Shown piece by piece: positions 29,198-29,719 of a stretch of DNA of 64,000 nucleotides. Made by a program: the position numbers and the translations under genes. Position 1 is the first letter of the stretch; each line of letters begins with the position of its first letter. The notes below the pieces were generated by a model. That model saw only the letters and a program-made list of their open reading frames with translations. It did no database searches and was not told the DNA's origin. The DNA is from Verrucomicrobiota bacterium (GTDB lineage: Bacteria > Verrucomicrobiota > Verrucomicrobiia > Chthoniobacterales > UBA10450), in the NCBI GenBank assembly GCA_003218375.1, contig QHNH01000010.1, positions 24,597-88,596 of the forward strand. The letters run 5' to 3'.

Positions 29198-29249
29198 TCG
29201 GGGTGACAGGATTTGAACCTGCGACCTGTCGCCGCGGCGACCGCTCTAC
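29198..29249 (-). other. 3' portion of a disrupted tRNA-Pro-like gene
   Basis: Reverse complement: GTAGAGCG-GTCGCCGCGGCGAC-AGGTC-GCAGGTTCAAATCCTGT-CACCCCGA. The last 30 nt are identical to the 3' end of tRNA-Pro(TGG). Confidence 0.7.
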
Positions 29250-29482
29250 TTGAGGTTGTTGAGTTCATCGCGCCCTCGCCCTGTTTTGTAATATCGTTCT
29301 TTCAAGAGCGCTTCGGATCGGGTCTCGAACTGTTCGGTGTGGACCAGGATCCACGGCACCCCGTGCTTGGTCGCTTTGGATTCGCCGCGGTTATGCCGGC
29401 CAAGCCGATCATTCATGTCCTCACAAGAGCCAACATATCGCCGGCCAGTTTTCCCACTTTTCAAAACATACACATAAAACAT
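29246..29482 (-). CDS. Small GIY-YIG nuclease-family protein
   Basis: MFYVYVLKSGKTGRRYVGSCEDMNDRLGRHN... has the GIY-(x10)-YVG motif and the R..H. Its stop codon overlaps the tRNA fragment. Confidence 0.75.
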   Translation of the reverse strand: MFYVYVLKSGKTGRRYVGSCEDMNDRLGRHNRGESKATKHGVPWILVHTEQFETRSEALLKERYYKTGRGRDELNNLK

Positions 29483-29516
29483 TTCAGCTCGTTGAGCTAA
29501 TCGGTTTGATGGGAAA

Positions 29517-29590
29517 TCGGGGTGACAGGATTTGAACCTGCGACCTCCTGGTCCCAAACCAGGCGCTCTACCAAGCTAAGCTACACCCCG
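29517..29590 (-). tRNA. tRNA-Pro (TGG)
   Basis: CGGGGTGTAGCTTAGCTTGGTAGAGCGCCTGGTTTGGGACCAGGAGGTCGCAGGTTCAAATCCTGTCACCCCGA. CCA is not encoded. Confidence 0.9.
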
Positions 29591-29643
29591 AGATTCCTTG
29601 ATGCTTATCATGCGCGAGAGGGCTCCGCATGCGGAAACTGAGA

Positions 29644-29719
29644 GACCTGTCGCCGCGGCGACCGCTTTACCAAGTTCGCCCCGGCGAATCCGTCCTTTGG
29701 CGGACTAAGCTACACCCCG
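29644..29719 (-). other. 5' portion of a disrupted tRNA-Pro-like gene with a 31-nt D-loop insertion
   Basis: Reverse complement: CGGGGTGTAGCTTAG[TCCGCCAAAGGACGGATTCGCCGGGGCGAAC]TTGGTAAAGCGGTCGCCGCGGCGACAGGTC. Confidence 0.65.

Follow-up and report, generated by a model that had tools for sequence, protein, structure and literature searches.

A GIY-YIG minigene and a hairpin bracketed by tRNA-Pro sequence at a Verrucomicrobiota locus

The locus and its parts

The window, that is, the whole stretch of 64,000 nucleotides that was analysed, carries on its minus strand, just past metH, a tRNA-Pro(TGG) gene, a small GIY-YIG open reading frame (ORF), and two incomplete pieces of tRNA-Pro-like sequence, here called the 5′ pseudo-half and the 3′ pseudo-tRNA (Table 1). 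When the sequence was re-read, every element that the initial annotation had listed was found where it had been placed on that strand, although the insert in the D loop measures 30 nt (29675-29704) and not 31.

Table 1. Features of the tRNA-Pro locus, in the order in which the minus strand is read
Feature	Position	Strand	Content or evidence
Intergenic region on the metH side, putative native tRNA promoter region	29720..29781	-	past the metH stop; TGATAAGCATCA at 29741-29730
5′ tRNA-Pro pseudo-half	29644..29719	-	tRNA-Pro positions 1-26 (acceptor 5′ strand and D arm), palindrome, AGGTC
Double hairpin within the D loop of the pseudo-half, 30 nt	29675..29704	-	TCCGCCAAAGGACGGA + TTCGCCGGGGCGAA; missing from the intact tRNA
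Palindrome/hairpin copy 1, replacing the anticodon arm	29649..29662	-	GTCGCCGCGGCGAC, 14 nt
Spacer, a diverged duplicate of the promoter region	29592..29643	-	TGATAAGCATCA at 29610-29599
Intact tRNA-Pro(TGG), resident gene	29516..29591	-	ARAGORN and Rfam
Spacer from tRNA 3′ end to ATG, 33 nt; left end of cassette	29483..29515	-	sequence
GIY-YIG nuclease minigene, 78 aa	29246..29482	-	Pfam PF01541
3′ pseudo-tRNA	29195..29249	-	GTAGAGCG (D-arm 3′ strand), palindrome, AGGTC, T arm, acceptor 3′ strand, CCA
Palindrome/hairpin copy 2; right end of cassette	29228..29241	-	GTCGCCGCGGCGAC
30-nt perfect direct repeat, variable loop to discriminator of tRNA-Pro	29198..29227	-	identical to 29517-29546

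The region next to metH is homologous to that preceding tRNA-Pro at the empty sites described below and at loci L007 and L143. Because a search of this region for the sigma-70 consensus gave no match, its putative role as the native tRNA promoter is assigned from position and conservation; the 5′ pseudo-half would now be under its control. The diverged duplicate presumably drives the intact tRNA together with the ORF, which may be co-transcribed with it, the 33-nt spacer between them being too short for a separate promoter.

ARAGORN called a single tRNA here, the intact tRNA-Pro(TGG) (29516-29591), and the Rfam tRNA model scored 70.6 bits at 29517-29590, with no other tRNA-like match between 28900 and 30000; neither program recognised either of the pseudo-pieces. 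The 5′ pseudo-half has no T arm and no anticodon, and in the 3′ pseudo-tRNA the palindrome occupies the place of the anticodon arm, so that, as first described, both pieces carry GTCGCCGCGGCGAC in its stead. Joining the halves in silico across their shared 27-mer, a check that the initial annotation had proposed, gave no tRNA call; when the 30-nt D-loop insert was also removed, ARAGORN reported a ‘tRNA-???’ with a 2-nt ‘anticodon’. Elsewhere in the window, the same program called a 92-nt ‘tRNA-Thr’ at 18768-18859, without Rfam support.

Three direct repeats tie the parts together. A repeat search recovered the 27-nt repeat already noted (29223-29249 and 29644-29670, 26/27 identical); the 30-nt perfect repeat comprises the variable loop, T arm, and acceptor 3′ strand of the tRNA; and 15 nt of the tRNA 5′ end are repeated as well (29576-29590 = 29705-29719). 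The two copies of the tRNA 3′ end lie 319 nt apart, and the sole long ORF between them is the GIY-YIG ORF, whose TAG stop (29248-29246) overlaps the tRNA fragment, falling inside the D-arm-derived GTAGAGCG. In the 3.96-Mb genome, the 23-nt core of the 27-mer and the promoter word TGATAAGCATCA each occur exactly twice, as do words from the tRNA-Pro 5′ and 3′ ends, and all of these copies are at the locus.

The 14-nt palindrome is more widespread, with seven copies in the genome, five of them outside the locus. The possibility that the 27-bp repeat is a dispersed motif therefore has to be divided: its core, GCG plus the palindrome, is scattered in low copy number through non-tRNA contexts, REP/MITE-like elements included, whereas the full 27-mer is found genome-wide at this locus alone. 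Of 151 genomes from the order, 20 contain the 17-mer of GCG plus palindrome and none contains the reversed control; the 17-mer is present in six of the eight genomes that carry the nuclease. Near-identical copies of the 30-nt double hairpin lie at three other places in the window's genome; one of these sits inside a partial copy of the element.

The ORF product matches Pfam PF01541 with an E-value of 7.8e-13 (49 bits against a cut-off of 22.6), residues 1-68 aligning with profile positions 1-71 of 78, and its assignment as a 78-codon GIY-YIG gene is thereby confirmed. The protein is the catalytic domain alone, with no DNA-binding domain. Across 78 homologues, Y5, Y16, G18, R26, H30, E62, K66, G68, G70, and R71 are 97-100% conserved (Y5, H30, and E62 100%, R26 98%, Y16 and G18 97%); the catalytic roles of the GIY tyrosine, the Tyr-x-Gly of YIG, the arginine, and the glutamate are our assignments from general knowledge of the fold. 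A dN/dS of ~0.1 shows the gene to be under purifying selection, and because of this value and the invariant catalytic residues we regard the nuclease as probably functional.

The nearest solved structures are stand-alone UPF0213/SLX1-like proteins of similar size, EF2693 (1ywl, E 7e-6) and BH0048 (1zg2, E 1.5e-3), for which we know of no described tRNA or hairpin context. The PADLOC, PHROGs, and NCBIfam libraries returned only marginal ‘homing endonuclease’ matches, such as PHROG 314 (E 6e-5) and TIGR01453 (19 bits against a cut-off of 56), and a search of plasmid and phage collections for carriers gave no match. A survey of this genome for further GIY-YIG minigenes adjoining tRNA genes, as had been suggested, found this one only; the other frames were UvrC and an unrelated frame of 155 aa.

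The unit at related loci

The boundaries of the unit become clear when 89 non-redundant related loci are compared. Its order is resident tRNA, short spacer, GIY-YIG ORF, D-arm remnant, hairpin, and an exact repeat of ~30 nt of the tRNA 3′ end. It is found at tRNA-Pro(TGG/CGG/GGG) genes in Verrucomicrobiota and Planctomycetota and, with a different hairpin, at tRNA-Arg(ACG) genes in Acidobacteriota and at a single tRNA-Asn(GTT) gene in a relative of the window's order. A tRNA on the same strand lies less than 450 nt upstream of the ORF in 82/89 loci, most of them with a gap of less than 40 nt, and in 79/89 the hairpin follows directly 3′ of the ORF, laid out as in the 3′ pseudo-tRNA described here. 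In 57 of 77 loci, the final 28 nt of the tRNA recur with no more than one mismatch. The repeat has constant bounds, the first base past the anticodon stem and the discriminator, and its median length over 51 loci is 31 nt.

The left junction of the cassette is the mature tRNA 3′ end. In the window, the cassette thus delimited spans ~290 nt (29515-29228) and consists of the spacer, the nuclease gene, a D-arm remnant of 7-8 nt, and the 14-nt hairpin; it encodes no ligase and no recombinase. The repeat at 29198..29227 is the target-derived duplication that brackets it. The repeat is always of the local tRNA type (Pro-TGG, -CGG, -GGG, Arg-ACG, or Asn-GTT), and the intact tRNA is therefore the resident gene rather than a replacement carried by the cassette, as had been proposed.

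The stem of the hairpin, GTCGCC/GGCGAC, does not differ between TGG, CGG, and GGG genes or between Verrucomicrobiota and Planctomycetota, and because of this identity across genes and across two phyla the palindrome is best read as belonging to the cassette, not to the tRNA. Its loop varies freely (GC, AC, GG, TT, TGA, TGT, GCG), and one compensatory stem variant (GCCGCC/GGCGGC) was seen. In most related loci the hairpin stands on the 3′ side only; here, it stands on both.

The second copy belongs to the upstream 5′ pseudo-half, an accessory module of variable copy number. Among ~25 related loci it occurs in zero to five tandem copies, and it is missing from about two thirds of loci. A separate copy of the tRNA promoter region accompanies each pseudo-half, and the arrays run to as many as five units; L080, L105, L085, and L104 have arrays with this unit structure, and the 30-nt double hairpin recurs in the pseudo-halves of L004, L104, and L053. 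The promoter-plus-pseudo-half unit, with its additional 30-nt double hairpin, is probably a secondary product of rearrangement or amplification of the cassette system, not the original target.

These observations bear directly on the model of the initial annotation, in which a unit of ~420 bp (spacer, replacement tRNA-Pro, and GIY-YIG ORF) had entered an aberrant tRNA-like gene that was already there, duplicating 27 bp of the target. The 27-nt repeat does exist, its bounds are identical at the tRNA-Pro(GGG) locus L020, and nicks on both strands upstream of the palindrome would yield such a stagger. We nevertheless consider this model very improbable. In most loci the cassette is present with no 5′ pseudo-half; among the loci read, none had the aberrant gene in uninterrupted form; pseudo-halves come in arrays of up to five units with a promoter copy each; and the internal tRNA always fits the local isoacceptor and the empty-site allele. 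What is constant over the 89 loci is the duplication of the ~30-nt tRNA 3′ end, and not the 27-nt repeat.

The pseudo-tRNA pieces might instead be functional transcripts, for example a split, anticodon-less tRNA-like RNA in which the promoter-driven 5′ halves and the 3′ piece are paired through the self-complementary palindrome and which guides or scaffolds the nuclease, or a mark for tRNA-type processing at the 3′ end of the mRNA. This would suit the promoter copies in arrays of up to five units, the position of the palindrome exactly at the anticodon-arm junctions of both pieces, the junction at the mature tRNA 3′ end, a nuclease without a DNA-binding domain, and a stem that is kept while the loop is free. 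It sits badly with the lack of a 5′ pseudo-half in about two thirds of loci, with the failure of ARAGORN and Rfam to recognise the pieces, and with the folding of the 3′ pseudo-tRNA, which taken alone is no better than that of shuffled sequences (z = -1.6). We judge an RNA-level device of this kind to be improbable.

Integrase islands are characteristically marked by foreign DNA with a directly repeated tRNA 3′ end on either side, and such a repeat brackets the insert here. One might therefore take the locus for the relic of an island whose attL and attR share the tRNA 3′ end and which has lost everything but a small ORF. As with tRNA-targeting integrative elements, the tRNA is intact and a second copy of its 3′ segment closes the insert on the far side; in contrast to them, there is no integrase between the repeats, the cargo is only ~290 nt, and the start of the repeat coincides with the foot of the anticodon stem and adjoins a hairpin borne by the cassette. 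The same integrase-free content of ~290 nt at about 80 loci in three phyla, repeat bounds that abut a conserved hairpin, and surroundings with no integrase ORF make this origin extremely doubtful.

Some loci are not accounted for by a simple cassette model, namely, those with flipped hairpins (L002, L004, L088, L113, and L117), and the same is true of the origin of the 5′ pseudo-half arrays. A large inversion as the source of L002 and L004 was ruled out by their unchanged downstream gene order. Tandem amplification of the whole cassette was seen at L063, L094, L109, and G179.

Empty sites, decay, and change of site

A comparison of the tRNA-Pro locus with related genomes, which had been recommended as a check, revealed empty sites. 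Two genomes of the same genus, G012 and G014, have metH, the promoter region, tRNA-Pro(TGG), and the lipoprotein gene, with no ORF, palindrome, or fragment at this site, and the nuclease gene is thus polymorphic for presence or absence at one site among relatives. The intact tRNA-Pro(TGG) of the window is 99-100% identical to the tRNA at these empty sites, which could represent losses instead of sites that were never invaded. Copies decayed by internal deletion, frameshift, or truncation were found at L148, L011, L009, L010, L008, L020, L113, L115, and L123.

The nuclease tree mixes isoacceptors, with TGG and CGG interleaved and the starred branches forcing at least three changes for each of the two labels; L072 (TGG) and L073 (CGG) are separated by a dS of 0.47, whereas copies at one site within the genus are synonymously saturated. 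On the evidence of this tree and of these dS values, the cassette has switched between tRNA-Pro isoacceptor genes. A single crossover with a circular element was considered as a route and rejected, since the 3′ repeat would then be of the donor type once the isoacceptor had changed, whereas both copies are of the local type. The site is also shared by many members of the genus, and in same-site copies of that genus synonymous sites are saturated, yet repeat identity is perfect.

Because of the empty sites, the decayed copies, the isoacceptor-mixed tree, and the dN/dS of ~0.1, the locus is probably, though by no means certainly, a small selfish mobile cassette of nuclease plus hairpin lodged at tRNA genes. 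Of the homing-type cassette first suggested, the tie to tRNA-Pro and the insertion-like behaviour (empty sites, decay, isoacceptor switching) stand, and the carried replacement tRNA falls. A counterpoint to mobility is that this genome holds a single copy of the cassette, another that the plasmid and phage collections yielded no carrier. Purifying selection, retention at one site in the genus, and perfect repeats could equally reflect a host-beneficial function that is kept vertically, with gene conversion.

The comparison with the Ssn family gives this counterpoint a concrete form. Ssn proteins (SsnA of Neisseria meningitidis; CDD cd10448) are small single-domain GIY-YIG enzymes that cleave single-stranded DNA only, beside the NTS/SRM hairpin repeats with which they are associated; the gene is flanked on both sides by the hairpin-forming repeat, which also occurs elsewhere in the genome, and in recognition the stem sequence and flanks matter, whereas the loop does not (PMC11893778). 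Here, too, a single-domain protein of 78 aa, with PF01541 only, is flanked on both sides by a hairpin, GTCGCCGCGGCGAC (29649-29662 and 29228-29241), with an invariant stem and a free loop. The differences are that seven copies of the hairpin are present instead of hundreds, that it does not fit the published SRM consensus, and that it replaces the anticodon arm of tRNA copies in a unit that looks like an insertion. The consensus, HGTCWYN(0-2)YYVSBRHN(0-5)WNVSBRGN(0-2)RNCYNB, had no match within 28000-31000, one in the window against 0-1 in shuffled sequences, and 33 in the genome; the Ssn paper contains no occurrence of the word tRNA (PMC11893778).

The cassette might thus be a domesticated Ssn-like system that serves genome maintenance or the control of DNA uptake and is inherited vertically, the tRNA serving only to lend a strong promoter and the fragments being kept by gene conversion with no role in mobility. 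In Neisseria, Ssn proteins serve in this way (PMC11893778), and the low dN/dS with invariant catalytic residues, the same site in many members of the genus, and the dispersal of GCG plus palindrome in non-tRNA contexts, including REP/MITE-like elements, would all fit. We regard it as unlikely, however, in view of the patchy distribution with empty orthologous sites and many decayed copies, the switching of isoacceptor genes with a locally matching 3′ repeat each time, the mere five palindromes outside the locus in this genome, and the missing SRM motif around the gene.

Homing relatives and a possible mechanism

Seg-type homing endonucleases join a nuclease domain to a DNA-binding domain that sets the target, and they spread by gene conversion without target duplication. 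The cassette nuclease differs in having no joined DNA-binding domain, and in most loci the cassette is bracketed by a locally matching direct repeat of ~30 nt; to our knowledge, GIY-YIG homing involves no target duplication. Similarity of the nuclease to phage homing enzymes is marginal. Besides Ssn, the closest parallel is SegB of T-even phages, a free-standing GIY-YIG homing endonuclease in a phage tRNA gene cluster, which cuts inside tRNA genes at a motif, RAWTSGAAC, that corresponds to the T-loop region and drives tandem segmental amplification of the tRNA-nuclease locus via microhomology (PMC13096335). Both systems have a GIY-YIG gene adjoining tRNA genes, and here as well one sees tandem cassettes and arrays of tRNA pieces. 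The present gene is, in contrast, bacterial and chromosomal, encodes 78 aa of catalytic domain only, and comes with a conserved hairpin, a duplication of the tRNA 3′ end that is fixed at ~30 nt, and one D-arm-plus-hairpin end that mimics the tRNA.

If the cassette is a selfish mobile element, its nuclease may recognise the hairpin in single-stranded nucleic acid, as Ssn enzymes do. The cassette end, GAGCG-hairpin-AGGTC, would mimic the GAGCG-anticodon hairpin-AGGTC of a tRNA-Pro gene, and if the DNA were cut both at the foot of the anticodon hairpin and at the 3′ end of the tRNA, repair by the host could install the cassette with a target duplication of ~30 nt. Since a 30-nt duplicate of the tRNA 3′ end then lies past the cassette, the tRNA remains intact. 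Recombination between the repeats could afterwards lead to scarless loss or to tandem amplification.

A bolder form of this proposal would make the cassette a new class of bacterial mobile element, in which a catalytic-only GIY-YIG enzyme takes its target specificity from nucleic-acid structure instead of a DNA-binding protein domain. The D-arm remnant and hairpin might mimic the folded region of D arm, anticodon hairpin, and variable loop of the tRNA gene; alternatively, the cassette end might be transcribed with the promoter-driven 5′ pseudo-halves to give a split tRNA-like guide or scaffold RNA. Either would direct cuts to the anticodon-hairpin base and the tRNA 3′ end, leaving the ~30-nt duplication and keeping the tRNA alive. 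We offer this as speculation that is unlikely to hold.

A literature search found no description of tRNA-embedded GIY-YIG minigene cassettes, and a selfish element would apparently be an undescribed kind of DNA living on tRNA genes. The tRNA genes of common soil bacteria (Udaeobacter, other Verrucomicrobiota, Planctomycetota, and Acidobacteriota) would then host a very small, unannotated element made of a minimal nuclease and a hairpin and harmless to its target. Such an element would connect the cutting and amplification of tRNA loci by SegB with the hairpin-reading Ssn nucleases, account for odd tRNA pseudo-fragments and tandem arrays of tRNA halves in annotations, and provide a source of matched nuclease/hairpin pairs with new specificities. 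It would also raise the question of how an enzyme of 78 residues locates a tRNA gene and yields a target duplication of 30-40 nt.

The centre of the palindrome, CCGCGG, is what we take to be the site of the GIY-YIG restriction enzyme Eco29kI. A reading as a restriction site was rejected: natural variants (CCACGG, CCTTGG, CCGGGG, and 3-nt loops) lose the central symmetry while the stem is kept, and the element therefore fits a hairpin, not a duplex palindrome.

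Anatomy of the tRNA-Pro locus

Read on the minus strand, the region 28900-30100 runs in order from the metH stop to a lipoprotein-like ORF through the parts tabulated below. Here, we will call the 5' tRNA-Pro-like piece the pseudo-half, and the 14-nt hairpin-forming sequence that replaces the anticodon arm in both tRNA-Pro-like pieces the palindrome.

Features of the tRNA-Pro locus in minus-strand order
Feature	Position	Strand	Remarks
metH stop	29782	minus	
Promoter-like stretch	29741-29730	minus	with TGATAAGCATCA
5' tRNA-Pro-like piece	29719-29644	minus	
52-nt spacer		minus	second copy of promoter stretch; TGATAAGCATCA at 29610-29599
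Intact tRNA-Pro(TGG)	29591-29516	minus	ARAGORN and Rfam
33-nt spacer		minus	between intact tRNA-Pro(TGG) and ORF
78-codon ORF	29482-29246	minus	GIY-YIG domain (PF01541, E 7.8e-13)
3' tRNA-Pro-like piece	29249-29195	minus	CCA at its end
Lipoprotein-like ORF	29176-28631	minus	begins 19 nt past CCA of 3' piece

The intact gene is the sole tRNA called at the locus by both ARAGORN and Rfam. A direct-repeat search recovered the 27-nt repeat (identity 26/27) and a 15-nt repetition of the tRNA-Pro 5' end, and a perfect 30-nt repeat (29198-29227 and 29517-29546) covers the variable loop, T arm, and 3' acceptor strand of the tRNA. The layout described in the initial annotation is correct, far beyond chance, with all parts in place and repeat words found nowhere else in the 3.96-Mb genome that contains the window. 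The bare palindrome occurs seven times in this genome, and no second GIY-YIG minigene of the same kind was found in it.

The D loop of the pseudo-half holds a 30-nt double hairpin (29675-29704; TCCGCCnnnGGACGGA plus TTCGCCGTGGCGAA), a copy of a separate dispersed mini-element that has three further sites in the genome (C1:115455, C37:2233, and C42:215304-215358, where one copy lies inside a partial copy of the element). The same insert is present in the pseudo-halves of three compared loci of relatives (L004, L104, and L053).

The same layout in related genomes

In genomes of the same genus, an ORF of 69-75% identity comes behind the orthologous tRNA-Pro(TGG), and after it TAGAGCG-GTCGCCGCGGCGAC-AGGTC, T arm, and acceptor. 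A scan of species-representative genomes yielded 80 further loci, from Candidatus Udaeobacter, other Chthoniobacterales, Planctomycetota (56-69% identity), and Acidobacteriota (51-56%). In 82 of the 89 non-redundant loci, a same-strand tRNA precedes the ORF at a distance of less than 450 nt; the hairpin directly follows the ORF in 79 of 89, and in 57 of 77 the final 28 nt of the preceding tRNA are repeated past the hairpin with at most one mismatch. The limits of the cassette (spacer, ORF, D-arm remnant, and hairpin) follow from loci L072 and L073, whose similarity extends from the spacer, a few bases past the tRNA, up to hairpin-AGG.

The tRNA is Pro-TGG, Pro-CGG, or Pro-GGG in Verrucomicrobiota and Planctomycetota, always with the hairpin stem GTCGCC/GGCGAC, and Arg-ACG in Acidobacteriota, with TCCGCC-nnn-GGCGGA; a tRNA-Asn locus in a relative from the order of the window (L018, genome G038) has the latter hairpin. 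The repeat begins at the first base past the anticodon stem in Pro cassettes and just past the anticodon in Arg cassettes, and its other limit lies within a few bases of the discriminator or CCA.

About two thirds of the Pro-type loci possess no pseudo-half. Where present, its unit comprises the promoter region, tRNA positions 1-26, the hairpin, and AGGTCGC, and tandem arrays are common (three units in L064, L085, L095, and L104; five in L080 and L105), with near-identical units and a decayed outermost one. In five loci (L002, L004, L088, L113, and L117), a flipped hairpin (GACCT-palindrome-CGCTC) follows the ORF, and behind it lie a 5' tRNA half and a promoter, both inverted; the genes further downstream keep their order. 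We regard the arrays and flipped forms as probable secondary products of rearrangement or amplification around a hairpin that would be prone to breakage, which would make them comparable to the segmental amplification caused by phage SegB; the junctions of both are not derivable from a simple model.

The initial annotation had proposed a GIY-YIG cassette inserted in an aberrant tRNA gene. The cassette and its targeting of tRNA-Pro stand, and the aberrant target gene and its 27-bp target duplication are not supported: the pseudo-half, taken as half of a disrupted target, is an optional part, and the duplication that is constant across loci is a repeat of the tRNA 3' end with fixed limits (median 31 nt, 51 loci). 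Nor is a carried replacement tRNA supported, since the repeat matches the local tRNA in every case.

Two further observations concern GIY-YIG minigenes. Loss of the TAG from the D-arm remnant (L095, L098, L103-L106, L122, L074, and L116) lets the nuclease frame continue through hairpin and T arm (...ERSPRRQVAGSNPVTP) to give products of 95-106 aa. A second family in same-genus relatives (L015, L016, L017, L019, L022, and L030) consists of GIY-YIG minigenes of ~82 aa located 115-220 nt downstream of tRNA-Gly(GCC), tRNA-Met, and tRNA-Ala genes; the tRNA is followed by a long hairpin with a stem that co-varies from locus to locus, then by a conserved spacer (GCCACGCCGGAGTG.AACG.AGGCGGGC ... GACTACGGCTTGGCAGGCC), and no 3' tRNA repeat was found at these six loci.

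The hairpin

The 14-mer is identical between copies with saturated synonymous sites. Its variants differ at the centre (CCACGG, CCGGGG, CCTTGG, and 3-nt loops TGA, TGT, and GCG), and one lineage carries matching changes in the two stem arms (GCCGCC...GGCGGC). This pattern points to a stem-loop whose stem is sequence-specific and which would be recognised in single-stranded nucleic acid; the centre-only variation and the paired stem change speak against a palindrome recognised as a duplex by a dimer. GAGCG-anticodon hairpin-AGGTC is the natural order in the tRNA-Pro gene, and the cassette end has GAGCG-hairpin-AGGTC, which on a direct reading makes the cassette end a structural mimic of its target, and we infer a functional meaning for this mimicry.

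GCG plus palindrome occurs outside tRNA contexts at five sites in the genome, and across the genus it lies at the core of REP/MITE-like elements (TTGTAGGGC..GCG-palindrome-C..GCCCTACAA); a second non-tRNA context of the palindrome is CTGGGGAGCG-palindrome-CCAGC. Sites near neither tRNA nor nuclease include C10:106793, C21:36145, C25:295206, and C2:9124 in the genome itself, and L033, L035, L038, L043, L044, L055, and L060 in relatives. The motif is found in 20 of 151 genomes of the order (reversed control, 0) and in six of the eight that carry the nuclease, an association that is partly trivial because the cassette itself includes the motif.

Polymorphism, site switching, selection, and a proposed mechanism

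The cassette is polymorphic. Empty sites in genomes G012 (L141) and G014 (L150) have the promoter and tRNA-Pro(TGG) between metH and the same lipoprotein gene and lack all the extra parts, and alignment of filled against empty sites leaves two gaps, the 5' pseudo-half unit and the cassette plus repeat. Decayed copies include a 21-codon ORF remnant flanked by perfect repeats (L148), frameshifted or deleted cassettes (L011 and L009), and truncated ones (L008, L020, L113, L115, and L123). Whole cassettes are duplicated or triplicated in tandem in several genomes. Perfect tandem units (3' tRNA repeat, spacer, ORF, and hairpin) were observed in L063 (3 x 308 nt), L094, L109, L064, and L128, and at G179:C2:1241191-1242061.

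The cassette also switches sites. TGG and CGG cassettes are interleaved within the well-supported Pro clade of the nuclease tree, whose starred branches require at least three changes for TGG and at least three for CGG. The ORFs of L072 (TGG) and L073 (CGG) are 93% identical in DNA (dS 0.47), and synonymous sites are saturated between cassette copies that occupy the same TGG site in different genus members. Judging from a nuclease dN/dS of ~0.1 and the 97-100% conservation of residues Y5, Y16, G18, R26, H30, and E62, the cassette ORF is a working gene. From the established cycles of homing endonuclease genes, we infer that homing-type selfish genes should show a patchwork of intact, decayed, and absent states in which the intact copies are under selection, and the cassette has this pattern.

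The best explanation for the locus, which we hold with rather more confidence than doubt, is a selfish cassette of GIY-YIG gene and hairpin that has lodged at tRNA genes. The ORF would be co-transcribed with the tRNA, because the gap is less than 40 nt in most loci and leaves no room for a promoter of its own. By analogy with Ssn, the nuclease may recognise, in single-stranded DNA, the conserved hairpin together with its flanks. If it cut where the anticodon hairpin begins at its base and again at the 3' end of the tRNA, and host repair filled in, the result would be a duplication of ~30 nt matching the local tRNA; recombination between repeats would then remove the cassette without a scar, leaving the empty site, or yield tandem copies. 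Had a circular copy entered by a single crossover, one repeat would be of donor type after an isoacceptor switch; the repeats are of the local type. Within the cassette proposal, the cut-and-fill-in step is the weakest, because the cassette encodes neither ligase nor recombinase and GIY-YIG homing is not known to create a duplication.

Among known systems, SegB resembles the cassette in its tRNA neighbourhood, tRNA-gene cutting, and locus amplification (it drives segmental amplification; PMC13096335), but it is a phage protein, and the similarity of the cassette nuclease to phage homing enzymes is marginal. Ssn/NTS systems share a minimal protein with flanking hairpins, but their published motif is absent from the cassette and tRNA is unmentioned in PMC11893778. 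With integrase islands, the 3' tRNA repeat is the sole common feature. A literature search, with most subscription journals outside its scope, found no published description of tRNA-lodged GIY-YIG cassettes.

Elsewhere in the window, a 92-nt tRNA-Thr(TGT) called by ARAGORN (18768-18859) is probably a false positive, with no Rfam tRNA match in 18600-19000. The metH frame (29782-34260, 1492 aa) contains an in-frame segment resembling Y1/REP-associated tyrosine transposases (~32593-33169), bordered by repeat-derived 'GSARASRA' peptides.
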